Assembly: GCA_040006035.1 (NCBI GenBank)
Contig: JBDTXT010000001.1
Coordinates: 1-28,765, forward strand
Direction of reading: 5' to 3'
Source of the DNA: Pseudonocardiales bacterium
GTDB lineage: Bacteria > Actinomycetota > Actinomycetes > Mycobacteriales > Jatrophihabitantaceae
DNA length: 28,765 nucleotides
Positions 379 through 19,978 of the stretch are shown here, piece after piece. A program made the translations under genes and the position numbers. Each line of letters opens with the position of its first letter. Positions within the stretch are counted from its first letter, which is position 1. The notes beneath the pieces were generated by a model. It was not told the DNA's origin. It ran no database searches and saw nothing but the letters and a program-made list of their open reading frames with translations.

Positions 379-1014
379 GTGAGCGTCCGCCGGGTAAGCG
401 TTCCAGTCGAGCGGCTGGGGCGATGGCTGACCGGCTTCACCGAGCGGCATGGCGCGACGGTGGCCACGGCCGAGGCGGACGAGGTGCAACTGAGCGGCGA
501 CGACGGTGCCCGCGCCTGGGTCGAGGTGCCGTTCGGGCCGATGCCCGCGGTCGCATCCGGCGACGATCCTCGAGACGTCCTGGTCGCCCACGCGGTACGC
601 AGCCGGACGGTCGGCGTGCTGCTCGTGCGCCGGCGGGGTCACGCCGTCGGCGTATTCGCCGGCACCGACCTGCTCGCCTCCAAGGTCGATTCCTCATACG
701 TCCAGGGGACGACGAAGGCTGGCGGGTGGTCGCAGCAGCGCTACGCCAGGCGACGCGACAACCAGGCCCGGGCTGCGTTCGCAGACGCCGCAGAAACCAC
801 CGCCCGCGTCCTGTTGCCCCACGCCGCCAGGCTCGATGCGCTGATCTGTGGCGGGGACCGCGCCGCCGTGGAGGCCGTGCTGGCCGATCCCCGGCTGGGC
901 AAGCTCGCCCTACTGCGCTGCGACCCCTTCCTGTCAGTGCCCGACCCGCGCTTGCGAATCCTGCAGGCCACGCCCGCCCAGTTCCGGACCGTTCAGATCA
1001 CCCTTGATCCGTGA
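379..1014 (+). CDS. acVLRF1-family (Vms1-like release factor) peptidyl-tRNA hydrolase
   Basis: Motifs GVLLVRRRGHAVGVF and SKVDSSYVQGTTKAGGWSQQRYARRRDNQA (GGxSQ catalytic-Gln loop), C-terminal LICGGDRAAV; 211 aa. Confidence 0.88.
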   Translation: MSVRRVSVPVERLGRWLTGFTERHGATVATAEADEVQLSGDDGARAWVEVPFGPMPAVASGDDPRDVLVAHAVRSRTVGVLLVRRRGHAVGVFAGTDLLASKVDSSYVQGTTKAGGWSQQRYARRRDNQARAAFADAAETTARVLLPHAARLDALICGGDRAAVEAVLADPRLGKLALLRCDPFLSVPDPRLRILQATPAQFRTVQITLDP

Positions 1015-3496
1015 CAGCGTCCCGCTCCACCGGCCGCGCCGGCAGCATCGCCGCGAGTATTGCGACCTGCGCCGCGAACATCGGGTCCCGCCAGTAGTTG
1101 GAATGCATGTCGGCACGCGGCCATTGCGTATCGCCCGGAGGGCGGTGCCATTCGGGGTCGGTGGACTCGACCTCGATGGGCGAGTGCGTCGGGAACTTCG
1201 GTGGCGGGCCCGCGGTCACCTGACCGCCCAGGTAGTCGCTGTAGCGCCACAGGTTGCGCCAGCGGGGCTGGCCCCCAGCCACCGTGAGCACGTCGTCACT
1301 CAGCTTGGCCAACTGCGCTACCCCGAAGTACGCGGGGAAATAACGCGCGTACAGGCGGCGCAGCACGCAGCCGAACGATAGGTACGCGACCGACCACAGG
1401 ACCGGTTGGGTGCCCTCCGGTAGCGTCCGCGCCTCCTCGTCGTCGATCGCCCTCAGCTGGAAGAACGTCGCCATGCTGATGACCGTCCCCTGGCTGTGCG
1501 CGGCCACGACGACCCTGCGCGAGGGGCGCTGCTTGTCGCGGGTATGCCAGTACACCCTGGTCACCAGGTCGGGAACGGCCCGCTCGGCGTAACACGGCGC
1601 CGCGAACGGATGCGCAGAGCGTGGCCAGAACGACGCGAGATCCCAAAGAATCCCGACCGATTTGCGAGTCTTCGCGACCCGGAAAGCGGCAGCACCAAGT
1701 CCGACGAGCAGCCCCAGGGTCATCACCGCCAGATACGCCCCGGTCCCTTCGAGGGAACGGGCCGAAAGAAAGCCGCAGTGCAGCACCTTCCCCGACTTCC
1801 CGGCACCGCAGCCGTCCCTGATCGAACCGGTGGACTCATGCCAACGGATCAACGGGTTGCTCGACTTGCGGTTGTAGGCGCTGGCGATCAGCAGCCAGGT
1901 GAAGAACCCGGTGATGGCCAACCCAGCAGACGTCATGACGGCGAGGAACATGTGGGCGAAGTCGACCCGGCGAGCGAGCCAGAAGGTCCGGGTCACCTGC
2001 TTGGCCCGGGCCTTGGCATCGCTCGAGTCCCAGTCGACGTGTCGGTCGCGATAGGCGTCGCGCAGCATCTTGCGGTAGTCGGTCTTTCGTACCCTGCGCG
2101 GGTACATGTGCCGGATCAACCGCCGCCCGGCGAAGAACAGGCCGATCCCTATCACGATGACCGGGAGCATGGCCACCGCCACGGCATAGGCCCGCGTCGC
2201 GTCGCGGATGACGTCGGGAACCACGAACTCCCCGGCCGCGATGGAAACCTCCTTGAAGCCGGGTTTCAGACTGCCGGTGCGCAGCCAACCTGCGGCGAAC
2301 ACGTACAGACCTGACGAGAACACCGCTCCGAGGAAGATCCCCAGCGCGCCGAGCAGGACCGCCGAGCAGTCCCACAGCGCTCTCGGATCGTCGTGCGCCG
2401 CGCGCTCCTTCGCCCAGCGCCGCGACATGTGGACGATCAACAGGCTGAACGCGATGAACAGAGCCACCAGAGCGATGAAGATCCCCATGGCGGTTCCCGC
2501 GTAGCCGGGCAGTCCGCTCCCGCCGTTGCTCGGCAGCGGTTGGCGCCAGAGCAACGTGTAACCCAGCACCCCCGCGTAGCCCACGACCGCCGCCCAGACG
2601 GCCCAGCTGGTCAGGAACAACGACCTGATCTGCCGTCGGCCGGTGTAGGCCGGGCACAGCAGCACTGCCACGGTGTAAACCGCCACGACTGCGGTGACCC
2701 ACTTGCGCCAGTCATGCCACGCGCCGGACAGCGGGTAGGAGACGATCCAGAGAATCGTGATCAGGCCGGCGAGCAGGTGCAGATGCCGTAGCCGGCGGAC
2801 CTGGTACTCGTTGTCCCACATCCATCGCGATTCGAGGCTCGGCTCGACGTCGTCGGCGCCGCTCTTGTCCGCCTTCGTGACGGTCCGGATCGGGACGCCC
2901 TCGTAGTTGTTGATGGTCCGTCCGCTGAGCTGCCACAGCAGGGCCAGAATCGCTAGCGGAACCAGCGCACCGACGGCGATCCGGTGCTCGTTCGACATGC
3001 GCAGCAACGGATGCATGATCCGTCCCGGCTGTGCCGCCGAACAATCCGGTCCGGCCGGTACGCCCGGCGCGCACTGGTAGGCGAACAGGTCGACGGTCAC
3101 ACCCGCGATGGCGCTGACGATCAGCACGGTCATGGCCAGGGCGAGCAACCTGCTGATGAACCACAGCAACCGCAAACGCCACTCCGAGCGCCCGCCGGGC
3201 CGCAGGCGGGGCGCGACGTTGAGCAGGGTGAACGGCAGCAGCAGCAGCCACAGCGCACGGCTCGGAGCTCCGGAGGTCAGCCCGCCCCAGGCGTATCCCT
3301 CCAGTCGAGGCCCCGTCGTCGCCGGCTTGCCGTCGATCGTGCGCGGATCGCGCTCCTCGTCCGACAGCCGGGGCTTGTAGAAACCGGCCTTCGCATCGCC
3401 AGCCTGCTGCTTTACCAGCGGGGTGTCGAGCAGTTCCTCTGGCGGCGTTCCGGACACGCCGTGCACTCGGATTTCGATGATCTCCGATTCAGTCAT
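998..3496 (-). CDS. Polytopic membrane protein (832 aa) with split alpha/beta-hydrolase-like motifs
   Basis: ATG at 3496 (MTESEIIEIRVHGVSGTPPE) with GGGGAG RBS; about 10-12 hydrophobic segments; C-terminal AAHSQGT, WRNLWRYSDYLGG and HSNYW motifs; start overlaps the stop of the upstream hydrolase by 8 nt. Confidence 0.8.
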   Translation of the reverse strand: MTESEIIEIRVHGVSGTPPEELLDTPLVKQQAGDAKAGFYKPRLSDEERDPRTIDGKPATTGPRLEGYAWGGLTSGAPSRALWLLLLPFTLLNVAPRLRPGGRSEWRLRLLWFISRLLALAMTVLIVSAIAGVTVDLFAYQCAPGVPAGPDCSAAQPGRIMHPLLRMSNEHRIAVGALVPLAILALLWQLSGRTINNYEGVPIRTVTKADKSGADDVEPSLESRWMWDNEYQVRRLRHLHLLAGLITILWIVSYPLSGAWHDWRKWVTAVVAVYTVAVLLCPAYTGRRQIRSLFLTSWAVWAAVVGYAGVLGYTLLWRQPLPSNGGSGLPGYAGTAMGIFIALVALFIAFSLLIVHMSRRWAKERAAHDDPRALWDCSAVLLGALGIFLGAVFSSGLYVFAAGWLRTGSLKPGFKEVSIAAGEFVVPDVIRDATRAYAVAVAMLPVIVIGIGLFFAGRRLIRHMYPRRVRKTDYRKMLRDAYRDRHVDWDSSDAKARAKQVTRTFWLARRVDFAHMFLAVMTSAGLAITGFFTWLLIASAYNRKSSNPLIRWHESTGSIRDGCGAGKSGKVLHCGFLSARSLEGTGAYLAVMTLGLLVGLGAAAFRVAKTRKSVGILWDLASFWPRSAHPFAAPCYAERAVPDLVTRVYWHTRDKQRPSRRVVVAAHSQGTVISMATFFQLRAIDDEEARTLPEGTQPVLWSVAYLSFGCVLRRLYARYFPAYFGVAQLAKLSDDVLTVAGGQPRWRNLWRYSDYLGGQVTAGPPPKFPTHSPIEVESTDPEWHRPPGDTQWPRADMHSNYWRDPMFAAQVAILAAMLPARPVERDAVTDQG

Positions 3497-4496
3497 TCCG
3501 GCTCCCCTGCGCCGTGGAGCGAGCCGACACAACCGAGCGTCGAACCCACTCGAAGGTCGCGGCTGGCTGCTCGATGTGGGCAAAATGCCCGGCCTCGTCG
3601 ATGGACGTCACGCCCGCGTCGGGCAGCACCCGGGCGAACGCTCGCGCATCTGCGGCACCGGTGAACTGGTCGCGAACGCCGAACAGCCCGAACACCGGAA
3701 CGGCGATACGCGGCCAGTCCGTTCGCGGGTCATGGCTTTTGGCGTTGCGGGCGGCCATACGGAAAGATCTTCCTCGGAAGTCGGTCGACAAGGAAGCACG
3801 AAACGCTGGCCGCGCTCTTTTCGGCTGGGCGAGAAATGGTCGAAGCACCAGGGGCATGAGTCGGACGCGAGACAATGCCGCCAGCAGGATTGGGGCCAAC
3901 GGCCCCAACAGGCTCAGCGCGACCTGGGTCCGGTAATAGACGGTCGCGCGCGGATGATGTACCAGCGCATTGGCCGGGCGCGCCGCGGCTTCGACGATCG
4001 AGAAATACGCGCCGGACAGGCAGCAGATGGATGTGATCTCCGGTGCGCCCCCACTCGCCATTTCCATCGCCAGGTAGCCGCCCATCGAATGACCGACCAG
4101 ATCCAGTTCGCGGTAGCCCAACTGGGCGCACGCCTGCACCAGAGCCGGCCCGATCGCGGTCGCGTCCAGAGATTCTGGACGACGTTCCGATGCGCCGAAC
4201 CCAGGAAGATCAACAAACAGCACGTTGCCCAGTTCGCCCAGCCGTGGGCCGGCGGCGAGCATCAGGGGGGTCCAGGTCGTCCACGACGCGCCCACTCCGT
4301 GCAGGAATACCGTCACTCGCTCGCTGCCCGGCCGAAACCGGCCATTCAGGGCGTAAAGCGCTCCGGCTGTCGTCTGAATAGTCGCGGCCTCAAGCGTGAA
4401 ATCAGCCGGTTCGCTGCGCAGGTCGTAGGGAAAGTACGTGCGTTCGACGCCGGTCACTCGCCGAGTAAATGGCGATAACGACGCGAAGTCCAGCAC
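3489..4496 (-). CDS. Alpha/beta-fold hydrolase (serine esterase/lipase type)
   Basis: VFLHGVG oxyanion motif, VDLPGFG, GHSMGG nucleophile elbow, GVRDQF acid and AGHFAHIE His motifs. Start uncertain (GTG 4496 or GTG 4457). Confidence 0.88.
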   Translation of the reverse strand: MLDFASLSPFTRRVTGVERTYFPYDLRSEPADFTLEAATIQTTAGALYALNGRFRPGSERVTVFLHGVGASWTTWTPLMLAAGPRLGELGNVLFVDLPGFGASERRPESLDATAIGPALVQACAQLGYRELDLVGHSMGGYLAMEMASGGAPEITSICCLSGAYFSIVEAAARPANALVHHPRATVYYRTQVALSLLGPLAPILLAALSRVRLMPLVLRPFLAQPKRARPAFRASLSTDFRGRSFRMAARNAKSHDPRTDWPRIAVPVFGLFGVRDQFTGAADARAFARVLPDAGVTSIDEAGHFAHIEQPAATFEWVRRSVVSARSTAQGSRND

Positions 4497-4523
4497 CTAC
4501 AACCGTTGTGTGACACTCGCGTG

Positions 4524-6737
4524 GTGGAAGTTCGGCAGCCGGCATCGACCGTGGATCGGTCCTTGCTCGACGGCGTGCTCGCGGTGGTGCGGGAACTGGG
4601 CGGAAATATCGAGCTCGGGGAGGCGCTGAAACTGATCGTCGGCGCCGCGGCCGGAGTGCTGGGCTTCGGGGCAGCCGCCATCAATGTCACCACTCCCGAA
4701 GGCGACTTGCGCGTCGAGGCGGTCGTGGGTCCGCCGGGCATCGAGGAACTGGTGGGCACGCGTCGGCCCATGGAGTTCTGGCGCGAACTGCTCGCGGCGG
4801 CCGAGCCGTGGGGCGAGCTGCGCTACTTCAGTCACGAGCGTGATCAAAGTCTGGTTGATCAATTCACCACGTGGATGCCGCCCAGCCCAGCGGGCCCGGA
4901 ACCGGATGCCTGGCATCCCGAGGACACGCTCCTCGCGCCGCTGTGGGACGACGAACGGCGCCTGATCGGCGCAATCAGTGTGGATCAACCGAGATCCGGC
5001 CGGCGCCCGGACATCGAACAGTGCACTGTGCTCGAGGTCTTCGCCGGCCAGGCCGCGCGAGCCATCTGCGACGCCCAGGCGCGCCAGATCGCCCGGGCTC
5101 ACCGACTCGAGGTCGAGTCTCGCTGGCGGTTGGCTTTCGAACACAGCCCGACCGCGGCAGCGCTCGTCGGCACAGACGGGCGTATGACGCAGGTCAACGA
5201 TGCCTTCGTCGCGCTGTTGGGCTATACGCGTGAGCAGCTGATGGGGAGGACATTTGCCGAGGTCACGCATCCGGACGATGTGCGGAGCAGTGTTGACATG
5301 TTCGCCGAACTCATCGCCGGCCAGCGAGACAGCTACCAACTGGAGAAGCGCTACATCCGGGCCGACGGGCAGCTCGTCTGCGCGCTGCTGCATGTCGGCG
5401 CCATCCGTGACGAAGGCGGGACCGTCCAGACCATCGTGTCGCAGATCAGCGACATCACCGAGCGAAAGGTGGCCGAGGAGCGACGGACCCACCAGCTCTC
5501 GCATGATCAACTCACCGGGCTGCCCAACCGGTCCCACCTCGGCCGCGTGCTGTCCGAGTACCTGGCCGCGCGACAGCACGTGGGTGTGTTGTTCTGCGAC
5601 ATCGACCGGTTCAAGACGATCAACGACAGCCTCGGCCGGCGCGCTGGCGACGAGCTGTTGCGTTCTGTGGCCCGGCGCCTGAGCGCCGCGGTTCCCAGTG
5701 GCTGCACCATCGGGCGGGTCGGCGGCGACGAGTTCGTTGTCCTCGCACCCGGCGAGCATGATCCACCAGCCCTGCGCCGTCTCGGCGAGAAACTATTGGC
5801 GGCGCTGCGCGAGCCGTTGGCGATCGGCGGCTTCCGGCCCACTCTCGGCGTGAGCATCGGCGCAGCCGCGAGCGTGTCCTGGGACCAGCATCCTGATGAC
5901 CTCATCCGCGATGCTGAGCACGCGCTCTCGCGGGCGAAGGCACACGGTCGCGGCCTCGTCGAGGTCTACGACCCGCATCACGATCACCCGACGACGCTGG
6001 AAGACCTGCGGCTAGAGGAAGACCTGCGGCACGCGATCGACACCGGGACCGGGCTGCAGGCCCATCTCCAGTCGATCGTCAGCCTGGTCGATGAATCCGT
6101 GGTCGGCGTGGAATCGCTCATGCGCTGGCAGCATCCCGAACGGGGCCTGCTCGGTCCGGCGGATTTTCTGCGCATGGCTGAAGAGAGCGGCCTGATCGTG
6201 CCGCTCGGGTGGCGGATGCTCGAACTCGGCGTGCAGGCGGCGGCTAACTTCTCCGACAAGGCGCGCCACGGCGACTGGATCGCGGTCAACGTCTCGGGCA
6301 GCCAACTCGGCCGCGAGGTGCTGCCAGCCGAAGTACGGCGCGTCCTGGCCGTCAACCACGTCTCGCCGCACCGGCTGCACATCGAAATCACCGAGACGGT
6401 GTTGGTCGACGCCTCGCCCCAGGCCATCCGCGAGGTGCACGAGGTCGCCGACATGGGCGTCAGCATCGCGCTGGACGACTTCGGCACAGGGTATTCGTCG
6501 CTGTCCTTGCTGCGCGATCTGCCGATCAGCGTCGTCAAGATCGACCGCAGTTTCATCGCGCCGATAGCCGAGGATCGCCGTACCGCGGCGCTCGTTCGCA
6601 GCGTCGTCGCGATGTGCAGCTCGCTCGGCATCAGCACCGTGGCCGAAGGTGTCGAGACCCGCGAGCAGCTCGCTCTGGTCAGGGCATTCGGCTGCGATCA
6701 CGCGCAGGGTTACCTGTTCGGTCCTCCGGCCCCGTGA
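4524..6737 (+). CDS. Cytoplasmic GAF-PAS-GGDEF-EAL diguanylate cyclase/phosphodiesterase
   Basis: GAF (AWHPEDTLLAPL...GAISVD), PAS (EVTHPDD), FCDIDRFKTINDSLG, RVGGDEF, GVESLMRW, IEITET, LDDFGTGYSS, AEGVET, AQGY. Start uncertain (TTG 4506, GTG 4521/4524/4551); 4524 chosen for a GACACT-N6-GTG arrangement. Confidence 0.93.
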   Translation: MEVRQPASTVDRSLLDGVLAVVRELGGNIELGEALKLIVGAAAGVLGFGAAAINVTTPEGDLRVEAVVGPPGIEELVGTRRPMEFWRELLAAAEPWGELRYFSHERDQSLVDQFTTWMPPSPAGPEPDAWHPEDTLLAPLWDDERRLIGAISVDQPRSGRRPDIEQCTVLEVFAGQAARAICDAQARQIARAHRLEVESRWRLAFEHSPTAAALVGTDGRMTQVNDAFVALLGYTREQLMGRTFAEVTHPDDVRSSVDMFAELIAGQRDSYQLEKRYIRADGQLVCALLHVGAIRDEGGTVQTIVSQISDITERKVAEERRTHQLSHDQLTGLPNRSHLGRVLSEYLAARQHVGVLFCDIDRFKTINDSLGRRAGDELLRSVARRLSAAVPSGCTIGRVGGDEFVVLAPGEHDPPALRRLGEKLLAALREPLAIGGFRPTLGVSIGAAASVSWDQHPDDLIRDAEHALSRAKAHGRGLVEVYDPHHDHPTTLEDLRLEEDLRHAIDTGTGLQAHLQSIVSLVDESVVGVESLMRWQHPERGLLGPADFLRMAEESGLIVPLGWRMLELGVQAAANFSDKARHGDWIAVNVSGSQLGREVLPAEVRRVLAVNHVSPHRLHIEITETVLVDASPQAIREVHEVADMGVSIALDDFGTGYSSLSLLRDLPISVVKIDRSFIAPIAEDRRTAALVRSVVAMCSSLGISTVAEGVETREQLALVRAFGCDHAQGYLFGPPAP

Positions 6738-7536
6738 TCGTGATGATCGGGACGGCGCGCGGCGGCGTCCACTGATCGCGCGATATCAGCACTTCGCGCA
6801 GCAGGTCCGGCCGATCGGTGATGATGCCGGAAACACCGGCGTCGAGCAGCCGGTGCATCTCGTGCGGATCGTCCACGGTCCACACGATGATCGAGATGCC
6901 CACGGCGCGGGCGCGCGCGATCAGCCGCTCGCCGTACACGGGCAATCGCCCCACCCGCAGCGGCACGTGCGCGAACGCACCGCTCAGTCGCATCCGGGCC
7001 AGGCCGACGCGAGCGTGGCTGCTGGCGACGAGCGTTGCGAGATGACGCCAGCCGAGTGCGGTGTTCAAGTCGGGCCCTACCTGCTCCCGTAGCCGCCGCA
7101 GCCAACTGTCCCAAGCACCGGCGACGCACACGCGGTGCGCCGAGCCCGTCTGGATCAGCACTCGCGCCAGCTCACCGATGCCGGCCTCGTCCTTGAGGTC
7201 GATCGTGAAACACGCGTCCGGGAAATGTTCGAGCAACTCGGTCAGCGTCGGGATGGTATGCAAGTTGCCGACACGGAGCCGACGCACGTCGGCCAGGCTC
7301 CGCCCGTTGATCGCCCCACGGCCGTCCGTGACGCGATCGAGGGTGGCATCGTGGAAGACCACGAGGGCGCCGTCCGCGGTCAGTCGCACGTCGGTCTCGA
7401 GGTAGCGCACCCCGAGGGCGTAGGAACGGGCGAAGGCGTCGATCGTGTTCTCGGCCGCCAGGCCGGCGCCGCCGCGGTGCGCGATGGCCAGCACCCCGCG
7501 CCCGTCGCCGTACCGCATCGGTGCCAAAGCTTCCAT
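6679..7536 (-). CDS. Glycerophosphodiester phosphodiesterase (GDPD) family protein
   Basis: AIAHRGG...AENT, YLETDVRLTADG, VVFHD, TIDLK, WTVDD, GIITDRP motifs; start reassigned to ATG 7536; 3' end overlaps the convergent EAL gene by 59 nt. Confidence 0.93.
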   Translation of the reverse strand: MEALAPMRYGDGRGVLAIAHRGGAGLAAENTIDAFARSYALGVRYLETDVRLTADGALVVFHDATLDRVTDGRGAINGRSLADVRRLRVGNLHTIPTLTELLEHFPDACFTIDLKDEAGIGELARVLIQTGSAHRVCVAGAWDSWLRRLREQVGPDLNTALGWRHLATLVASSHARVGLARMRLSGAFAHVPLRVGRLPVYGERLIARARAVGISIIVWTVDDPHEMHRLLDAGVSGIITDRPDLLREVLISRDQWTPPRAVPIITITGPEDRTGNPARDRSRMP

Positions 7537-7725
7537 GGCGTCTACTCTGCCGCGTTCCGAGGGGCAGAAATGGCCATCGGGGGGGCGCCCCGCGAAACGT
7601 TCACCAGAGCTTCGCCTGCCCGCCGCCCGCCGTTGACACCCGTACGGGGTGCGCCACGCCGACTCGGCACAGGCCGTTGCCGCTGCCGACACAATGCCGT
7701 CCATCTGACTGGCAGAGTTGGTGGC

Positions 7726-8256
7726 GTGCGCACCCACCTGCCGACCGAGCACGGCTTAGAACTGCGCTCGTGGCGCGTGACGGACGGCCCGATGCTGCTC
7801 AGTTCGCTCGCGCCGGAGGAGATGCAACGCCAGTTCGGGCGGGTGATCGACACGGTGCCGGTTGCCGAGGAGTGGATAGCCGCGGGGCAGCTCGGCTGGC
7901 GCGACTACGCGGCGTACTCCTGGACGGCCGTCGCCGGTTCGCAGGTCGTCGGCTCGGCGACCGTGTCAGCGGTGGACCGCACGCACGACACCGGGTGGTT
8001 CTCCTACTGGACCGCCGATTGTGCCCGAGGCACTGGAGTAGCCACGGCAGCGACCCGGGCCGTCGCCGATTGGGCGTTGAGCGACCTGGGTCTGTTCCGG
8101 CTCGAGTTGGGGCACCGCACGAACAATCCCGCCTCCTGTGCGGTCGCCAGCCGCGCCGGGTTCGCGATCGAAGGGCTGCAACGGGCCAAACTGCGCTACG
8201 GCGGGGAGCGGTTCGACGTGGAGATACATTCGCGACTGGCCACGGACCGACGGTAG
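7726..8256 (+). CDS. GNAT N-acetyltransferase, RimJ/RimL type
   Basis: SYWTADCARGTGVATAA acetyl-CoA-binding motif and LFRLELGHRTNNPASCAVASRAGFAIEG; GTG start at 7726 inferred. Confidence 0.88.
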   Translation: MRTHLPTEHGLELRSWRVTDGPMLLSSLAPEEMQRQFGRVIDTVPVAEEWIAAGQLGWRDYAAYSWTAVAGSQVVGSATVSAVDRTHDTGWFSYWTADCARGTGVATAATRAVADWALSDLGLFRLELGHRTNNPASCAVASRAGFAIEGLQRAKLRYGGERFDVEIHSRLATDRR

Positions 8257-9293: not shown

Positions 9294-10177
9294 CGCGCAT
9301 GCGCCTGGTGTCGTTGCTGCCGTCGGCGACCGAGATCGTCTACGCGCTCGGGCTGGGAGATCAGCTCGTCGGAGTGACGTTCGAGTGCGACGAACCGCCG
9401 TCGGCGCGCCTGGAGAAGGCGGTCGTGGTGGCCGGTCGCGACACCTCCGCCATGAAGCCCGGGGAGATCGACGCTTACGTGCGCGCAAAATCGGCCGCCG
9501 GTGAGGACCTGTACACGCTGCACCAGGACGCTCTGGCCGGCCTGGACCCCGACCTGGTTATCACCCAGGACCTCTGCTGGGTGTGCGCGATCCCGTCCGG
9601 CCAGGTCGACGAGGCACTGGCCTATCTAGGCTGCAGCGCTGACGTCGTGTCACTCGACCCGCACTCGCTCGAGGACGTTCTCGAGACCATCAGCACAGTG
9701 GCCGAGCGCACCGGGACGCAGGCACGGGCCGCGGAGTTGATCGCCGGGCTGCGGCACCGGTTGGCCCGCGTGTCGGCGGCGGTCGCACACCGAGCACGGC
9801 CACGGGTCGCGGTCGTCGAGTGGGTCGACCCGCCGTTCCCGGGTGGGCATTGGATCCCGGATCTGATCAGTGCGGCCGGTGGCGAGCCAGTGGCGGCGAT
9901 GGCGCGCACGCCGTCGGCCCCCACCACGTGGCCGGCAATCGCGCAGGCGGCGCCCGATGTCGTGATCGTGGCGCCGTGCGGCTATCACCTCCCCGGCGCC
10001 GCCGAGCAGGCCCGTATCGTCGCCGACGCCCTTCCTGGCCCGCAGATCTGGGCCATCGACGCCGACGGCATCGTGGTCCGCCCCGGGCCGCGGCTCGTCG
10101 ACGGTGTCGAAGCGATCGCGGCGATCCTGCACCCAGCGTTGGTCCCGGCGTCGGACGCGGTGCTGCGCGTCAGGTAG
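9290..10177 (+). CDS. BtuF-like (cobalamin/siderophore-type) substrate-binding-fold protein without signal peptide
   Basis: RLVSLLPSATEIVYALG...VGVTFECD, DPDLVITQDLCWVC, EWVDPPFPGGHWIPD, RPGPRLVDGVE; ATGA overlap with the ADH stop. Confidence 0.85.
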   Translation: MTRMRLVSLLPSATEIVYALGLGDQLVGVTFECDEPPSARLEKAVVVAGRDTSAMKPGEIDAYVRAKSAAGEDLYTLHQDALAGLDPDLVITQDLCWVCAIPSGQVDEALAYLGCSADVVSLDPHSLEDVLETISTVAERTGTQARAAELIAGLRHRLARVSAAVAHRARPRVAVVEWVDPPFPGGHWIPDLISAAGGEPVAAMARTPSAPTTWPAIAQAAPDVVIVAPCGYHLPGAAEQARIVADALPGPQIWAIDADGIVVRPGPRLVDGVEAIAAILHPALVPASDAVLRVR

Positions 10178-12932
10178 CCGACCCGAGATCCTCAGGCGCA
10201 TGATCAGCCGCCTCTCGCGCGATCTCGCTGCGGGAGCGGGCGTCAAGCTTGGCCAGAATGTGTGACACGTGGGTCTGCACGGTGCGCCGGGACAGGAACA
10301 GTTCCGCAGCGATGTCCGGGTTGGACAACCCCTTCGCCACCAACTCCGCCGTCTTCAACTCAGTCGGGCTCAGGCTTCCCCAGCCGCTGGTAGGGCGGCC
10401 CGCGACCCGCGGGCGATGGCGGCGCATACCCAGGGGGCGGGTCCTGGCATCGACGCGGCGGATGTCCCACTCGGCCCCGAGCGCGGCGTAGGTGTCTATC
10501 GCCTCGATGAAGACCGGCCGGGCTCGCCCGAGGTCCCCACCCTCACCCAACAGAACCGCGAGCTCCTCCAGGGTCTGGGCAAGCTCGAGGGGGCGTTGGA
10601 CGCAGCGATAATAATCAGCCGCGGCCACCAACGCCGCCGGGTCGCGTTCGAGCAGGCCGCGGCACTGATCCGCCCCCGCTTGCATGGCCGGGAACGGGGC
10701 CGCCTGCGCATCGGCGAGACACATGGCGGCCGCGTCACCAGCCGTGGCGGTGTCCCCGACCGCCAGGGCCGCCCGCACAAGTGCGGGCAGGCACAGTGAG
10801 CGACCGTTTCCGCGGATGAAGTTCGCCCCGAGCGTCGCCGTGAGCTCGGCCACGGCGGCGTGAGGCTGGTGAGCCTGCTCGGCCACGACCGCCCGGGCCA
10901 GGATCACGTACGCGGAGTTCCAGAGAGTCCACGAATTAGCCGGCGTGAGTGCGTCATTCTCGTAGACCGTGTCCAGATGCAACGTGGCCGCCGGACGGTC
11001 ATTGCGATGCGCTGCCATGAGCGCCTTGAGGCCATGATGGACGAGAAAGGACGGGTCGCCTGGCTCCAGGTCGTCAGTGGCCTCGAGTTCGGCCAGCGCG
11101 TCATCCCATTGACCACAGGTGAAGTAATGAGTCGCGATCGACACCGTCACCTGAGCGAATCGCACTCTGCCCACCCGGTCGACGAGGTTGCGCGCCTGAC
11201 GGATCGTGTCCTCGGCCGCGGCGAACAGATCGCCGGCGTCCAGCGCGTGGATCCGATGGCTGAGCATGAGCAGCCGAAGGTCCGTGTGCTCGGGATTGTC
11301 ATCGCGGAGCAAGGCCAGCCCGCGTTCGAGGTTCTCGACGAATCCGCTGACATCCAAGTGGCTGGCCCGCTCGGCGGCCACCGTATGCAGTGCGTACGCG
11401 GCCGCCAGATCGTCCTGCTCGGCTGCGTCGAGAACCTCGTCCGCCGCGGCCCGGGCCACCTCGGCCTCGCCGCGCACCATGTGGCACTGTGCGAGCAGAG
11501 CGGTCAGCCGGGCCCACCACCGGTGCGGGAGCGCTTCGCTGGCCAACGTCTCACGCAGGGCCTTGATCGCCTCGTCGGCCCGTCCGGAGCGCAGCAACGC
11601 GCCGCCGAGCGCCCAGGTCATGACCCCGATCTGGTCGCCGTCCTTGGTCCGACCGAGCACCTGCCGGGCGAGCGCCTCGGACTCCTCGTTACGTCCGGCC
11701 CGCAGCAGTCCAATGGTCAGCCAACTGGCCAGGACGTCGCGGCCCTCGTCGGTTCCGATGTGCGAGCCCGCGACGGCGTCGAACAGCTGCATGGCTATCT
11801 CGGGCGCCAGATGGATCAACACCGGTGCGGCCTCGACGAGCCAGTCGAACATCCACTCATCGGCTGTTTCGGCGGCCGGGAGCATCTGTTCGGCCACCCG
11901 GTCGACCGAGGCTCCGGAATCGGCCAGGGCCCGCGCGATCTGACCATGTAGCGCCACCCGCATCCCGGTCGGAGTTGCCTCGTAGAGCGCCTGGCGGATG
12001 ACTGGGTGCCGGAACGCGTAGCGCGCCCCAGCCGGAACCACGACGCGCGCGGCCACCGCTTCGTCCATGACCGCGATGAGTTCGCTCGGTGCACGGTTGG
12101 CCACGATGGACAGATCCGCCACAGCGAACTCCCGGCCGAGCAGAGCGGCCAGGCGCAGCATCTGCCCGGTCTCGGTCGACAGAAAACCCAGCCGGTCGGC
12201 GATCGCCGCCGCCAGCGACTCCGGCGCGCGGCCGCCCGCGCAGGGCCCGTCGCGGAGCAGGGCGTCGGCGAGTTCGGTCAGGTACAGCGGGTTCCCCCCG
12301 GCTTGGGCAGCGAGTTCGTGCAGGTCAGGACCCGGTGGCCGGCCGAGCAATCCCGTGATCAGGTCTGCGGCCTGCTCGCTGTCCAAGGGACCCAGGTCAA
12401 GGACGGTGCCCCGGCCGGCTTCGATATCACGCCGCAGTCGCACCAGGCTGTCCGGCCGTGGCGTAGGCCGGCACGCGCCAACCAGCAGCAACGGGAGCTG
12501 GTCGATGACCCGGCTCAGCCGCTCCCAAACGAGCATGCTCGCGTCGTCGGCCCACTGCAGGTCGTCGATGACGAGGACGAGCGGGGAGTCGGAGCAGAGG
12601 TGATCGACCAGCGCGAGCGCCCGCTCCATCGCCGCCAGCACCGGGTCGGCACCCTCAGCCAGGGACGGATCCGGTACCCGGGCGTCGAAACCGAGACATT
12701 CGATGAGCACTTGTAAGGGGAACCGGTGTCCCCACTCCTCGGCCGCGCTCCATCGCAGCGCACAGCCCAGACGTTCGGCCTCGGCCAGGCCCTGCGCCAA
12801 TAGCGCGGACTTGCCGATCCCCGACTCCCCCTCGATCAGGACCGAGGCGCCGACTCCGTCGGCCACTGCGACCACAAGGTCGCGTAGCCGCTGGAGTTCC
12901 TTCGCTCGGCCAACGAAGACACCCTCAAGCAC
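10170..12932 (-). CDS. LAL-type large ATP-binding LuxR-family transcriptional regulator (AAA ATPase + helical repeats + LuxR HTH)
   Basis: FVGRAKEL, Walker A GESGIGKS, Walker B LVIDDLQWAD, GGNPLYL, C-terminal LSPTELKTAELVAKGLSNPDIAAELFLSRRTVQTHVSHILAKL; GTG start at 12932 inferred. Confidence 0.93.
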   Translation of the reverse strand: MLEGVFVGRAKELQRLRDLVVAVADGVGASVLIEGESGIGKSALLAQGLAEAERLGCALRWSAAEEWGHRFPLQVLIECLGFDARVPDPSLAEGADPVLAAMERALALVDHLCSDSPLVLVIDDLQWADDASMLVWERLSRVIDQLPLLLVGACRPTPRPDSLVRLRRDIEAGRGTVLDLGPLDSEQAADLITGLLGRPPGPDLHELAAQAGGNPLYLTELADALLRDGPCAGGRAPESLAAAIADRLGFLSTETGQMLRLAALLGREFAVADLSIVANRAPSELIAVMDEAVAARVVVPAGARYAFRHPVIRQALYEATPTGMRVALHGQIARALADSGASVDRVAEQMLPAAETADEWMFDWLVEAAPVLIHLAPEIAMQLFDAVAGSHIGTDEGRDVLASWLTIGLLRAGRNEESEALARQVLGRTKDGDQIGVMTWALGGALLRSGRADEAIKALRETLASEALPHRWWARLTALLAQCHMVRGEAEVARAAADEVLDAAEQDDLAAAYALHTVAAERASHLDVSGFVENLERGLALLRDDNPEHTDLRLLMLSHRIHALDAGDLFAAAEDTIRQARNLVDRVGRVRFAQVTVSIATHYFTCGQWDDALAELEATDDLEPGDPSFLVHHGLKALMAAHRNDRPAATLHLDTVYENDALTPANSWTLWNSAYVILARAVVAEQAHQPHAAVAELTATLGANFIRGNGRSLCLPALVRAALAVGDTATAGDAAAMCLADAQAAPFPAMQAGADQCRGLLERDPAALVAAADYYRCVQRPLELAQTLEELAVLLGEGGDLGRARPVFIEAIDTYAALGAEWDIRRVDARTRPLGMRRHRPRVAGRPTSGWGSLSPTELKTAELVAKGLSNPDIAAELFLSRRTVQTHVSHILAKLDARSRSEIAREAADHAPEDLGSAT

Positions 12933-13101
12933 CCCGCACCCAGCCTTCTTCTCAGCGTCAAGGTAGGGGCTTGAAAATACGCGGGTGAAGCCGGTCGGCA
13001 CCACGGCTCCATGTGACCAGCGTCAGGCGCACCGGTTAACGCGCCGGTGTCCCCGTGGCCGTCCGAGTACGCCCGTTCCTTTCCAGTGGCACACTCGGGC
13101 C

Positions 13102-16102: not shown

Positions 16103-17968
16103 CTAGGCCGGCGCGATCGTTGTCACAACGACGGTCTCGACACCGTAGACCGTGCGACCCGGCGCCCGGACAACAGCGCGGAGGGTGGCGGTCGTGGGGG
16201 TGCGCGGTGGGATGACGAGCACCGCCACGATCGCCGAGCTGAAGGCGGGAATCGTCCTGCTGCTCCGCCCGACGGCCCAGTCGGGCGGCGCCGCGACGGT
16301 GACCGTGACGTAGGAAGGCTGGGCGGTGCGGTTAGCCACCTCGACCAGCACTGTGTTGGGTTGCCCGGCGGTCAACGGCCCGGAGGCGATCAGGTTGGTG
16401 GCCTCGACAAAGCGCGGCGCGGCCCGGCCGTCGCCGGCCGTGGGCACGCCCGTGTCGGGATTGACGAAGAAGGGCCCGGCTCGGTGCGGGCCGGCGAAGT
16501 CGAAGGCACCGGCCAGACTGCCGGCGACCCCGTCATAGGAGCCGTCGCCGATGCGGCGGCCACCCAGCCAGTTGTCCTCGACGAACCGGATGATCGAGGT
16601 CTGGTCGGTCAGGGCGTGATTGACCGAGTTCGGCCTGCTGTACGGCGAGATGACGAGCAGCGGCTGCCTGGCGCCGTAGCCGCAGCGGCCCTGATAACCA
16701 CCCAGCACCGGGGTGGCGGTGCCGCACAGGCCCGGTCCGGTCAGCGCGTCGAATGCCGTCTGCGACGTGTTGATCCGCGGCGGGGCGACGTGGTCGTAGC
16801 CGCCGTCGGAGTCGTCCCACGCCACGACCACCGCGGTGTCCTTCCAGCTAGGCAGCGACTGCAGGTGGTTGACGGTGCTGGCCAGGAAGTTCTGCTCGTC
16901 CAGCGGGCCGGAGCAGCTGCAGCCGCCCTGCTCGTACCCGCCGGCCTTGAGGAACGAGACGGCGGGCAGCTTGCCGGCATTGGCGGCCGCGTAGAAATCG
17001 GTGAGGTCGTACTGGTGGTTGGCCCGCCCGTCATGGCCGATCTCGGTCAGCGAGCTCGGTGCCAGGTGATGCGGGTTGCTGGTCGAGGCGTAGTAGTTGA
17101 ATGCTTCATTGCCACTGTCGTAGTCGGTGCCGCGCTTGCCGAACACGGTGGTGTGCGACTCGGCGCAGACGGCTGAGCCGTCGGCCAGGCGGCTCGTGGC
17201 CCGGAACCCGCCGCTGAACCAGCCCCAGCTGACCTGCTGATCATTGAGCAGATCGCCGATGTTGCGTCCGGTGAAGTGCACGTTGAGCGGCGGCTTCGGG
17301 CAGTCGTCGTAGGTCGGCTCGATGTTGGCGATTGTCGTGCCGTCGACGATCTTCGTGGTGGGCAAGCTCGCCACGGCGCCGTGGTTCTGCCCAGAGACGA
17401 GGTTGACCGCGCCGATGTGCGAGGGACCGAACGTGGTGCCGAACGAGTTGTCGTTGAGGGCGAAGTTCTGCGCGTAGTTCCACAGCGCGGTGACCGTGTT
17501 GCCGTCGTAGTAGTTCATGACGTGCGTCGGGCTGCAGGCCGGATCACGAGACCCTGTCTCCTCGACGAAGCGGTTCATCAGGCCGTTGTTCATGGCCTTC
17601 TGCTCGGCGAGGTAGTCGTGGTTGGACCCGCAGACCCGCGGCTCGTTGCGCGGATTGCGCTGCGGGTTCGCGCTATTGGGGTTGTTGGTGAGCAATTGGG
17701 GGGTGTAGCCGTTAAGCGCCGGCGTGCCCGGCTTGGCGGTGAACGCCGGCTCGCCCGGCGGGTTGGCCGCGTGCGGGTAGACGCCGAAGTAGTGGTCGAA
17801 GGGCACGTTCTCCTGGAACAGGACCACCAGGTGCTTGATCGGAGTCGCCGTGGCCGTGCCACCCGTCGCGGGGCGGGCCGCCGCGGCAGCCGGGGTCAGG
17901 GTGGCCACCGTGACGCTCAGCGCGGCCCCAGCGATGAGCAAGTGGCGGCAGGTGGACTTGGCTGGCAT
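16103..17968 (-). CDS. Secreted phospholipase C / AcpA-type phosphoesterase with an extra C-terminal beta-rich (NEW3/Ig-like) domain
   Basis: GAGGAG RBS and ATG 17968; Sec-type signal peptide; TPIKHLVVLFQENVPFDHYFG, FGPSHIGA, WDDSDGGYDHV, GYGARQPLLVISPY motifs; about 110-aa C-terminal extension. Confidence 0.9.
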   Translation of the reverse strand: MPAKSTCRHLLIAGAALSVTVATLTPAAAAARPATGGTATATPIKHLVVLFQENVPFDHYFGVYPHAANPPGEPAFTAKPGTPALNGYTPQLLTNNPNSANPQRNPRNEPRVCGSNHDYLAEQKAMNNGLMNRFVEETGSRDPACSPTHVMNYYDGNTVTALWNYAQNFALNDNSFGTTFGPSHIGAVNLVSGQNHGAVASLPTTKIVDGTTIANIEPTYDDCPKPPLNVHFTGRNIGDLLNDQQVSWGWFSGGFRATSRLADGSAVCAESHTTVFGKRGTDYDSGNEAFNYYASTSNPHHLAPSSLTEIGHDGRANHQYDLTDFYAAANAGKLPAVSFLKAGGYEQGGCSCSGPLDEQNFLASTVNHLQSLPSWKDTAVVVAWDDSDGGYDHVAPPRINTSQTAFDALTGPGLCGTATPVLGGYQGRCGYGARQPLLVISPYSRPNSVNHALTDQTSIIRFVEDNWLGGRRIGDGSYDGVAGSLAGAFDFAGPHRAGPFFVNPDTGVPTAGDGRAAPRFVEATNLIASGPLTAGQPNTVLVEVANRTAQPSYVTVTVAAPPDWAVGRSSRTIPAFSSAIVAVLVIPPRTPTTATLRAVVRAPGRTVYGVETVVVTTIAPA

Positions 17969-18347
17969 GGCGTCTCCTCTTCGGCCCGGACATTCCACGC
18001 TAAACGTATGAGGTGGCTGACTCAAGTGCAGACGGTAAACGCATTCTGAACAGTTCCGCGCCGCCCGGCCCGTGGAGCGTGGCCGCGTCACGCGCCGGTG
18101 TAGGTCACGCCAACCGTTAGACCCGCGAGGTCTCGGGATTCCCGGCCGAACAGACCCACCAGTCGTCTACCAGCGTGCCAACGGCTCGTCCAAGCCGGGT
18201 CGTTGCGCAGCGTCGGAGCCAAAGTGGCCAAGTGCCGGTTCAACGCGTGGACGCTGCGAGCGAAGCTCACGCGATCGTCGTGGTCGACAGCGACGTCGCG
18301 GAAATATTGCGAGCCGACTGGGCCTGAGTCGAGCCGGCTCGCGGGTA

Positions 18348-18588: not shown

Positions 18589-19281
18589 TCACGGCACGGT
18601 GCGCAACGCGGTAGCCGCGATCCCGACCACGACGGGAATCACGCCAAGGCAGACGAAGGCCGGCAGGAAGCACAGCCCGAGCGGTGCCATGGCCCACACG
18701 CCGGCGCGATGGGCGCGGGCCTCGGCCACGGCTCGGACGCCCGCGCGCACCTCGGCCGCCACCTGCGCCATGCCGCGGGCGAGCTGAATCCCGCTGTGCG
18801 CGCTGCGGCAGGCAGCCTGGGCCACCGGGGCCAGGACACCGTCGGCGGCGAGGACCCGCCAGGCCTCGGCCGGGTCGGCACCCAGCCGCAGCAGGCCGGC
18901 GACGTGGTCGAGCTGCGCCTGCCGCACCGGCCCGGCGGCCGGCGCAGCCAGGACCAATGCCGCCGAGACGGGCTGCCCGCTGTGCAGCGCGGCCGCGAGC
19001 AGGTCGAGAGTGAGCGCCAGGCTGCGATCCGGCCCGCGCCGAACCGCTCGACGGGCGAGGCGGGTAAGCACGTGGCAGGCCACCGGGATGAGCAGGCCCC
19101 CGATCAACAGCCCGCGCACCGGGCTGAGCACTGCGACGCAGGCCGCCGCGAGAGCCAGCGCGAGCACCACTCGCAACGCGGGCAGCGGAATACGTCGCGG
19201 CATGCTCGCCCTGCCGACCCGCACCGAGGGCCCGATCGGCGCGACCCAGACTGCGGCCGCGAGCAACAGCCACTCACGCAC
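18589..19281 (-). CDS. tadC: Type II secretion F-family protein, TadC-like
   Basis: LTLDLLAAALHSG...LLRLGADP...RSAHSG...EARAHRAGVWAMAPLGLCFLPAFVCLGVIPVVVG; 8-nt overlap with the tadB stop. Confidence 0.88.
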   Translation of the reverse strand: MREWLLLAAAVWVAPIGPSVRVGRASMPRRIPLPALRVVLALALAAACVAVLSPVRGLLIGGLLIPVACHVLTRLARRAVRRGPDRSLALTLDLLAAALHSGQPVSAALVLAAPAAGPVRQAQLDHVAGLLRLGADPAEAWRVLAADGVLAPVAQAACRSAHSGIQLARGMAQVAAEVRAGVRAVAEARAHRAGVWAMAPLGLCFLPAFVCLGVIPVVVGIAATALRTVP

Positions 19282-19978
19282 GTTGGGCCCGCCGCATCAG
19301 CCGCTGGGTCCAGATCACCCCGAGCGCGTCGAGCAGGACGCCCGCGCCGCACAGCAGTCGCCCGGGCGGTGTACCGAGCAGGAACGACAACGGCTTGGCG
19401 CCCATGGCCCCACCCAACGCGATGCCGATCACGGGCAGCCCGGCCAACAGGGCAGCAGAGGACCGTGGCCCGGCCAGGGCCACCGCCACCGCCCGGTGCT
19501 GCTGCTCCAGATCGGCCAGATCGGCCGCCACCCGAGCGAGCACGTCTGCCATCGGGGCGCCAGAGACGGCGGCCACCCGCCAGGCGTGCGCGAGCGGCTC
19601 GAGATCTCCGGCGGCCAGCAGCACGACGGCAGGATCCGCACCAGCCGCCGCCGCCGCACTTGCCGCGGCAAATGCACTCGCGTGGTGGGGCGCCACCTCG
19701 GCCGCCGCCGCGAGAGCCGCGGCCGGTCGGCCGCCTGCCACCAGTTCGGCCACCAGGAGCCGAGTCGCGGTGAGCAGCTCGTGGCGTCGCCCCTCGCGAT
19801 GCCGTCGCGAAAAGGTTGCGAGCACGAACGTCGGCCACCTGGTGCGCCGCGCCCTCGGCCCCGCGACTGTGGCCAACCGGCCGCGTCGAGACAGGCCGAG
19901 TGCGCGCTGCCATGCCGGCGAGGGCAATGGAACCAACGCGACGCCGACGGCCAAGGCCAGCCAGGCCAGCGCAGTCAT
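19274..19978 (-). CDS. tadB: Type II secretion F-family protein, TadB-like
   Basis: LVAELVAGG...AWRVAAVSGAPMADVL...ALAGPRSSAALLAGLPVIGIALG...PLSFLLGT...LGVIWTQRL; ATGA overlap with tadA. Confidence 0.88.
   Translation of the reverse strand: MTALAWLALAVGVALVPLPSPAWQRALGLSRRGRLATVAGPRARRTRWPTFVLATFSRRHREGRRHELLTATRLLVAELVAGGRPAAALAAAAEVAPHHASAFAAASAAAAAGADPAVVLLAAGDLEPLAHAWRVAAVSGAPMADVLARVAADLADLEQQHRAVAVALAGPRSSAALLAGLPVIGIALGGAMGAKPLSFLLGTPPGRLLCGAGVLLDALGVIWTQRLMRRAQRA

Follow-up and report, generated by a model that had tools for sequence, protein, structure and literature searches.

A predicted actinomycete alpha/beta-hydrolase split around a polytopic membrane domain

Can two catalytic pieces at opposite ends of a protein, held apart by a polytopic membrane domain, form one hydrolase, and on what would such an enzyme act? 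The question is raised by a gene at positions 998-3496 of contig JBDTXT010000001.1 from a Pseudonocardiales bacterium (assembly GCA_040006035.1), within a stretch of 28,765 nucleotides (nt) that was analysed as a whole and is here called the window. The original prediction, made from the letters of the DNA, described an 832-amino-acid (aa) membrane protein resembling an alpha/beta-hydrolase with about 11 transmembrane helices inside its catalytic fold. The fold, its split, the conserved triad, the topology and the size of the family are established here computationally, and the modelling makes it very probable that the architecture is as described, with a competent Ser-Asp-His triad.

One predicted hydrolase domain from both ends of the protein

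The 832-aa open reading frame (ORF) proved to be real and to lie on the minus strand, which carries one open frame, whereas the plus-strand translation of 998-3496 contains stops throughout. Its third-position G+C of 0.85 is typical for real genes in the window (G+C 69%), and the gene is single copy in the source genome (68%-complete assembly, 510 contigs).

998..3496, minus strand: coding sequence of the membrane hydrolase, 832 aa plus stop (stop at 998-1000), an open frame with full-length homologues at 33-74% identity

The ATG at 3496 overlaps the stop of the upstream gene by 8 nt (ATGACTGA). It is a better start than an alternative TTG that extends the frame to 3583, because it is preceded by GGGGAG and because homologue N-termini, which begin about five residues ahead of the first strand, match it.

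An AlphaFold2 model calculated with an alignment of 38 sequences (36-74% identity) reached a predicted local distance difference test (pLDDT) of 89.3 and a predicted template modelling score (pTM) of 0.91, and displayed the secondary-structure elements of an alpha/beta-hydrolase in canonical order. The two hydrolase pieces, and the elements assigned by DSSP on this model, are as follows.

3266..3496, minus strand: N-terminal hydrolase piece, residues 1-77, ending in an invariant WGGLTSG (DSSP, alignment, two-chain docking)
Residues 6-12: strand beta3, followed by His-Gly
Residues 28-42: beta-hairpin, an extra element
Residues 64-70: strand beta4
Residues 78-622: helices of the inserted membrane region
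1037..1588, minus strand: C-terminal hydrolase piece, residues 637-820, with helix B, beta5, helix C, beta6, helix D, beta7, beta8 and helix F (DSSP, VIA-align Z 10-13, sub-threshold Pfam matches)
Residues 637-653: helix B
Residues 661-668: strand beta5, with Ser668 at its end
Residues 669-688: helix C
Residues 703-710: strand beta6
Residues 746-750: strand beta7, followed by Asp754
Residues 775-777: strand beta8, followed by His798
Residues 805-817: helix F

When the model was compared with 48,161 PDB representatives by VIA-align, the best 50 matches were all alpha/beta-hydrolases (Z 10.3-13.1, 165-200 aligned residues), and these alignments ran from model residue 1-5 to about residue 820, covering up to 165 of 172 target residues. 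The minimal-lipase matches span model residues 3-818 with 165-168 aligned residues: a second VIA-align comparison gave Lip_vut1 (6nkc_B) a Z of 12.9 and a root-mean-square deviation (rmsd) of 3.0 A over 165 of 172 residues, and Bacillus subtilis LipA (1isp/1i6w) a Z of 12.3-12.4 over 168 of about 180 residues, with residue 2 of the LipA chain aligned from model residue 4. Thioesterases are also among the closest structures, including Mycobacterium tuberculosis TesA (Z 12.4), the juvenimicin thioesterase (TE, 11.9) and human TE2 (11.7), as are DcsB, YbtT, ClbQ, RedJ, acyl-protein thioesterase 1 and RavL (7x2p, Z 11.5). Foldseek returned no match to the whole model in the PDB at E<=0.001; lipases and feruloyl esterases appeared there at a probability of 0.5-0.84. 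Strong matches among AlphaFold DB clusters (E<1e-6) were only uncharacterised 'integral membrane proteins', and named lipases or alpha/beta-hydrolases matched weakly (E 1e-3 or worse).

The joining of the two halves was further examined by two-chain prediction with ESMFold2, in which residues 606-822 and residues 1-77 were each folded with their own alignment. The pair scored an ipSAE of 0.81 against 0.00 for the best of three controls, a mark reached in calibration by 58 of 80 solved complexes and by 2 of 110 mismatched pairs; the three runs shared at least 80% of contacts, and the partner pLDDT was at least 71. In the best-defined contacts residues 6-11 pair with 660-667 and residues 10-11 lie against 667-670, so that in this model beta3 and beta5 are neighbours, as is canonical, and the oxyanion loop flanks the nucleophile elbow. 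Since this fold is very well represented among solved structures, the result may be due in part to likeness to known alpha/beta-hydrolases. Together, the predicted structure, the VIA-align matches and the two-chain docking bear out the proposal that the two ends, residues about 1-75 and about 630-820, form a single alpha/beta-hydrolase domain.

The five motifs on which that proposal had rested were all located in the protein, namely RVHGV (residues 10-14), AAHSQGT (665-671), LSFGCVLRRLY (706-716), WRNLWRYSDYLGG (746-758) and HSNYW (798-802). The catalytic elements within them are listed here.

3458..3463, minus strand: His12-Gly13 oxyanion-loop motif, directly after the first strand (conservation; residues 10-14 contact 666-670 in the two-chain model)
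1484..1504, minus strand: nucleophile elbow (residues 665-671); Ser668 stands where strand 661-668 meets helix 669-688 (conservation)
1235..1237, minus strand: Asp754, the catalytic acid, which lies on the loop that follows strand 746-750, the canonical beta7 (conservation and DSSP)
1103..1105, minus strand: His798, the catalytic histidine, located past strand 775-777 (beta8) and ahead of helix 805-817 (conservation and DSSP)

Their placement is that of the fold: the sequence A-H-S-Q-G at 666-670 sits exactly between strand 661-668 and helix 669-688, the DSSP assignment puts the nucleophile, the acid after beta7 and the histidine after beta8 in the expected order, and His12-Gly13 follows strand 6-12 and lies beside the nucleophile in the two-chain model. 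Their conservation exceeds chance. Across 229 full-length homologues, the most distant at about 33% identity, Ser668 is conserved in 228, Asp754 in 227 and His798 in 227 (the two remaining sequences have gaps there), while the oxyanion residues His12 and Gly13 are kept in 223 and 225, respectively, and the elbow residues His667, Ser668, Gln669 and Gly670 in 225-228. His667, Ser668, Gln669, Gly670, Asp754 and His798 are invariant in the 38-sequence alignment, in which His12 and Gly13 reach at least 90%. The residues named as catalytic in the original prediction are thus essentially invariant in both sets. Trp70, Pro88, His240, Trp618, Asp619, Pro625, His629, Pro630 and Arg639 are also absolutely conserved among the 229 homologues.

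This conservation bears directly on whether the protein could be a catalytically dead scaffold or receptor that merely retains a hydrolase-like fold. No specific point speaks for such a role. Pseudo-enzymes usually lose catalytic residues of this kind, and here Ser668, Asp754, His798, the His-Gly pair and the whole elbow are near-absolutely conserved over 229 divergent homologues, making a dead scaffold highly improbable.

The membrane domain and its probable place over the active site

The insertion between beta4 and helix B is about 560 residues long and contains ten membrane helices. A 19-residue hydropathy window revealed ten strong segments, and no signal peptide was found in the protein.

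1670..3175, minus strand: ten-helix membrane bundle, residues 108-609 (hydropathy; helices in both models)
Hydropathy segments: residues 108-143, 170-193, 238-260, 265-286, 293-317, 328-361, 373-405, 433-462, 513-538 and 582-609
3203..3265, minus strand: short, very hydrophobic helix, residues 78-98, core 81-95 (hydropathy, conservation)
3041..3073, minus strand: Cys142...Cys152 pair in the first extracytoplasmic loop (invariant across the 38 aligned sequences)
1589..1669, minus strand: junction, residues 610-636, formed by an amphipathic helix (608-622) and a loop (conservation, model secondary structure)

Loops assigned to the inside carry a mean of 28.1 Lys and Arg residues versus 9.0 for those assigned to the outside, and the inside count is the higher in 229/229 homologues; the protein of the window likewise has many more of these residues in its inside loops. 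Because the number of spans is even (ten) and the positive-inside rule is followed, both catalytic pieces are predicted to be cytoplasmic; the two halves therefore fall on the same side of the membrane, as a shared active site requires. At least two cysteines occur in the first outside loop in 97% of the 229 homologues and in any other loop in at most 12%, and Cys142-Cys152 is a probable disulfide. The opposite orientation, with the hydrolase domain outside the cell, was considered and rejected: there is no signal peptide, the Lys and Arg counts (28 versus 9) point the other way in 229/229 homologues, and the conserved Cys pair would become cytoplasmic.

Of the roughly 11 transmembrane helices originally proposed, ten stand as spanning helices, and the eleventh corresponds to the short helix at 78-98. 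Its core (81-95) is 15 residues long in nearly all 229 homologues, with a mean hydropathy of 2.0, and stays below the 19-residue-window threshold. This helix is the most conserved segment of the protein (block conservation 0.88), with Pro88 invariant and Asn93 conserved in 228/229. Since a full span here would put the N-terminal piece outside, against both structure predictions, we read it as non-spanning; it would be an inner-leaflet or interfacial helix.

The strands of the alpha/beta-hydrolase fold run parallel, and the active site lies along the edge made by their C-terminal ends. Cap and lid insertions occur after beta4 and beta6 in an alpha/beta-hydrolase superfamily survey (PMC11878206). 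As the insertion exits after beta4 and re-enters at helix B, both at the active-site edge, the membrane domain would occupy the cap position over the catalytic cleft, with the active site presumably facing the membrane. The distribution of conservation is consistent with this position. Identity is highest at the two junctions (residues 61-100 and 601-640) and lowest in the middle helices and in the outer loop 541-580. In the C-terminal junction Trp618, Asp619, Pro625, His629 and Pro630 are invariant and Trp624 and Arg626 near-invariant. Invariant or near-invariant residues at the junction and in nearby cytoplasmic loops comprise Arg80, Arg116, Arg235, His240, Arg497, Asp619, Arg626, His629 and Arg639, and the conserved Arg, His and Asp residues at this membrane-cytosol boundary probably bind an anionic head group.

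The conserved arginines of the junction could instead bind phosphopantetheine or the phosphate of coenzyme A (CoA). With the many thioesterases among the top structural neighbours, they speak for a membrane-anchored thioesterase or a protein or peptide deacylase, which would act on acyl-CoA, acyl-acyl carrier protein, a polyketide or fatty acid bound to a carrier, or an acylated protein, while the bundle would only hold the enzyme in place or take up the chain set free. The very best structural matches, however, are true minimal lipases, and the pair of motifs V-H-G-x-x-G and A-H-S-x-G is the signature of the bacterial lipase subfamilies and is not known as one of type II thioesterases. That the insertion is at the cap site speaks for a substrate arriving from the membrane domain. 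Moreover, the gene was not found in biosynthetic clusters, and its neighbours vary among lineages. We regard this role as improbable, though less so than a dead scaffold.

A different possibility is that the bundle itself does the work. The membrane region folded alone (residues 74-628) gave a pLDDT of 88.1 and a pTM of 0.89. Its first six helices repeatedly matched, weakly, the membrane domains of ABCG5/8, ABCG1, ABCA3/4, Cdr1, NosY, CcmB and TarG. These matches to type V (ABC-2) ABC exporters (Z 4.8-7.1, rmsd about 5 A, 163-196 aligned residues at about 5-258 of the membrane-only model) lie within helical-bundle noise: the best VIA-align Z of the membrane-only model was 7.1, none was at Z >=8, and for helical bundles a Z below about 13 can arise by chance. 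Foldseek found no match to the membrane-only model in the PDB or among Swiss-Prot models (template modelling score below 0.3), and the matches in the ESM Atlas were only clusters resembling the family itself, uncharacterised actinobacterial 'integral membrane proteins'. The membrane domain may thus represent a fold without an experimentally determined representative.

The weak likeness to lipid-handling ABC exporters is one of three points in favour of an enzyme-coupled translocator, in which the bundle would move a lipid, a lipid-linked intermediate or an acyl group while the cytoplasmic domain loads or unloads it, comparable to 'enzyme plus flippase' proteins of the AT3-SGNH and MprF types. 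The others are the size of the bundle, which at about 500 residues is larger than an anchor requires, and the conserved residues of the outer face and outer loops (Asp136, Gln141, Cys142/Cys152, the 326-332 loop and 402-414). Against it stand the noise-level Z values, the lack of a Foldseek match, and the middle membrane helices, which are the least conserved part of the protein (block identity 0.3-0.45), unlike a substrate pathway. Nor is an ATPase or other energy-coupling partner conserved nearby. Such a translocator seems unlikely, if somewhat less so than the thioesterase role.

We favour a different reading, in which the competent-looking Ser-Asp-His site, the LipA-like domain, the cytoplasmic location and the membrane domain at the cap site together point to an acyl-ester enzyme that draws on the membrane. 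The protein is probably a polytopic serine hydrolase of the cytoplasmic membrane, with a split, LipA-like, lid-less domain capped by the membrane domain and acting in membrane acyl-ester chemistry. Whether the reaction is deacylation or transacylation of lipids at the inner leaflet is a narrower matter, on which we put the chances at about even. A membrane-embedded acyl ester, taken from the cytoplasmic leaflet or held in the bundle, would be presented to Ser668; an acyl-Ser668 enzyme intermediate would then form, and would be resolved either by water, as in a lipase, phospholipase or lysophospholipase, or by a lipid acceptor, as in a transacylase.

Several observations weigh against this reading. 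Type II thioesterases and general esterases are also among the closest structural neighbours, and the fold by itself therefore does not mark lipids as the substrate. The 38-sequence alignment shows several conserved residues on the outer face of the bundle (Asp136, Gln141, the Cys pair and loop 402-414), which a purely cytoplasmic-leaflet enzyme would not obviously need. Among the loci compared there is no family-wide operon partner pointing to a substrate, and literature searches found no experimental data or publication on the family.

A bolder version of the capped-hydrolase reading can be offered tentatively. The bundle could be an undescribed membrane fold, a cap that draws out or retains a specific membrane lipid, or else a lipid-linked intermediate, and passes the acyl ester on to the cytoplasmic Ser-His-Asp site. 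The family might then be a new class of integral-membrane lipid-remodelling proteins, core to Streptomyces-like actinomycetes and possibly coupling deacylation or transacylation to movement between leaflets.

Family spread and genomic neighbourhood

No sequence family accounted for the protein. A Pfam scan of the whole protein gave only a sub-threshold Tle3 match at the elbow (E 0.067), NCBIfam and PADLOC gave no family match, and PDB sequences searched with two profiles, one for the whole family and one for the C-terminal domain, gave chance matches only (E 0.014 or worse). Scanning 38 C-terminal domains against Pfam likewise produced sub-threshold matches only, almost all of them to alpha/beta-hydrolase families (DUF3089, Tle3, PE-PPE, DUF676, Cutinase). 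The family has no name beyond 'integral membrane protein', and full-text literature searches found no published description of it.

It is nevertheless large. HMMER retrieved 2,261 cluster representatives (50% identity) at E <=0.001, of which 599 were at <=1e-30, and a DNA-pattern scan of one genome per species detected at least 596 loci, in Streptomyces, Micromonospora, Actinacidiphila, Streptacidiphilus, Pseudonocardia, Jatrophihabitans, Geodermatophilaceae, Streptosporangiales and others. An even sample of the phylum had the gene in 23 of 301 genomes. In the same sample it was present in 8/8 genomes of one large-genome genus, probably Streptomyces, and in 1/7 of another, so that the spread of the family is patchy. 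(One of the 23 is the unpublished genome G120, and publication of these tallies needs the permission of its depositors.)

When the C-terminal domain was used to search for stand-alone relatives, fragments of the same family were recovered, mostly on short contigs. On two longer contigs the homologue is encoded by two adjacent ORFs, of 657 and 219 aa with an overlap of 100 nt in a Nocardioides assembly (L086:2127-4660), and of 572 and 271 aa in the other (L087:2166-4816); such pairs may stem from a frameshift or from faulty assembly, or the gene may be naturally split immediately ahead of the C-terminal catalytic piece.

The gene directly upstream of the membrane gene also encodes an alpha/beta-hydrolase.

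3489..4496, minus strand: soluble alpha/beta-hydrolase gene, 335 aa, upstream of the membrane gene (Pfam Abhydrolase_6, 1.7e-22)

Homologues of this soluble hydrolase overlap the membrane gene from upstream in the window and at loci L003 and L083 (68-75% identity), are convergent downstream of it at L004 and L084 (36%), and are divergent upstream of it in the Nocardioides assembly L086 (38%). The soluble hydrolase is missing at the other loci compared, and a search of five other genomes with the membrane gene did not find it at E 1e-15 or better. Given these three arrangements and absences, it is a recurrent but optional, lineage-restricted neighbour and not a family-wide partner.

An all-against-all comparison of 619 neighbour proteins showed conserved neighbours that are Streptomyces-specific only. 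At 55 fetched loci, mainly of Streptomyces (e.g. L045:8310-10832, minus strand), an 840-aa protein with a right-handed beta-helix and an AAA ATPase is encoded convergently on the membrane gene, and DeoR, PALP, TerD, MOSC and SRPBCC genes are locally conserved at mainly Streptomyces loci. None of these Streptomyces-type neighbours (beta-helix-AAA, DeoR, PALP, TerD, MOSC, SRPBCC) occurs in the window. At four further loci the neighbours were unrelated except for the soluble hydrolase.

Two genes of the window belong to families of phosphodiester and phosphoester hydrolysis, a glycerophosphodiester phosphodiesterase at 6679-7752 on the minus strand (GDPD, 5.7e-41) and a PF04185 phosphoesterase of the phospholipase C/acid phosphatase family at 16103-18091 on the minus strand (8.2e-72). 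They could indicate a context of phospholipid catabolism or be a coincidence. A weak PF04185 gene also lies about 4.5 kb from the homologue at the P0011 locus.

The remaining genes of interest are listed by position.

379-1014, plus strand: gene of the acVLRF1/bacterial eRF1-like release-factor family (Pfam acVLRF1, 7.6e-46), convergent with the membrane gene, their 3' ends overlapping by 17 nt
4506-6737, plus strand: GAF-PAS-GGDEF-EAL cyclic-di-GMP turnover protein, divergent from the hydrolase pair and also present in the closest relative, L003 (80% identity over the first 208 residues)
10170-13004, minus strand: 944-aa LuxR-type regulator with AAA_16/STAND NTPase, TPR repeats and a GerE helix-turn-helix
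13691-14815, minus strand: cell-wall hydrolase candidate with two PG_binding_1 repeats and a CHAP domain
18589-21117, minus strand: T2SSF and T2SSE (TadB/TadA-like) genes, suggesting a Tad/Flp pilus cluster
24342-25283, plus strand: third alpha/beta-hydrolase gene (Abhydrolase_1, 2.3e-29)
25294-26487, minus strand: Colicin_V (CvpA) membrane domain fused to a trypsin-like serine protease domain, another protein combining a membrane domain with a serine hydrolase

Comparison with known systems

Whole-domain insertions into the alpha/beta-hydrolase core are rare, and the superfamily survey calls a helical insertion of 229 residues 'unique' (PMC11878206). Here a polytopic membrane domain of about 500 residues stands at the cap position, so that classical catalytic chemistry is found in an unusual, unnamed and widespread architecture whose membrane domain has an unrecognised fold. 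Enzymes of membrane-lipid turnover and remodelling in actinomycetes are poorly mapped, and a conserved, probe-addressable membrane serine hydrolase is a directly testable candidate.

For the hydrolase domain, the best structural matches are the minimal lid-less lipases of bacterial family I.4 (Bacillus subtilis/pumilus LipA 1i6w, 1isp and 7r25; rumen Lip_vut1 6nkc), at Z 12.1-12.9 and rmsd 3.0-3.4 A; the alignment takes in 165-168 of their 172-184 residues and reaches from the first strand to the last helix. The two share the six-stranded minimal sheet and the Ser-Asp-His order, and the motifs of LipA-type lipases are of the same style, V-H-G-x-x-G behind the first strand and A-H-S-x-G in the elbow. 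LipA, however, is a secreted, soluble and contiguous protein of about 180 residues, whereas the membrane hydrolase is predicted to be cytoplasmic and bears an insertion of about 560 residues between beta4 and helix B. The structural alignment shows 12-13% identity, with no PDB or Pfam sequence match, and the Lipase_2 Pfam model matched neither the whole protein (E up to 0.1) nor the 38 C-terminal domains (E up to 1). The protein would accordingly be minimal-lipase-like in its working, yet is no sequence member of any lipase family compared.

The AT3-SGNH acyltransferases (OafA/OatA type) offer a parallel in composition, in that they are described as combining a ten-helix membrane domain with a serine-hydrolase-type domain for acyl chemistry at the membrane (PMC7448272, PMC9558356). 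Their hydrolase domain is of the SGNH type and not an alpha/beta-hydrolase, and VIA-align and Foldseek found no fold or sequence match between them and the membrane domain. That SGNH domain is appended at the C-terminus and is extracytoplasmic. DDHD proteins (the intracellular phospholipase A1 family) gave no Pfam match and were absent from the best 50 VIA-align matches in either list, although lists of this length may still miss a family.

Closer in plan is PGAP1/Bst1, the glycosylphosphatidylinositol inositol deacylase, a polytopic protein whose lipase-like alpha/beta-hydrolase domain deacylates a membrane lipid; this domain is contiguous, faces the lumen of the endoplasmic reticulum and precedes the main membrane domain. 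Hidden Markov model (HMM) matches to PGAP1 (PF07819) were seen in 1 of 38 members (E 0.35) and to DUF676 in 9 of 38 (best E 0.015), all far below the gathering scores.

The Abhydrolase_9 'transmembrane lipases' (PF10081, with Abhydrolase_9_N, PF15420) are presented in the superfamily survey as bacterial alpha/beta-hydrolases joined to a multi-helix membrane domain that is fused beside the hydrolase domain, with a proposed action on lipids (PMC11878206). Neither PF10081 nor PF15420 had an HMM match to the whole protein or to the 38 members. These lipases and PGAP1 are the nearest architectural precedents; in both the hydrolase domain is unbroken, whereas in the membrane hydrolase it is interrupted, after beta4 and ahead of helix B, by the membrane domain.

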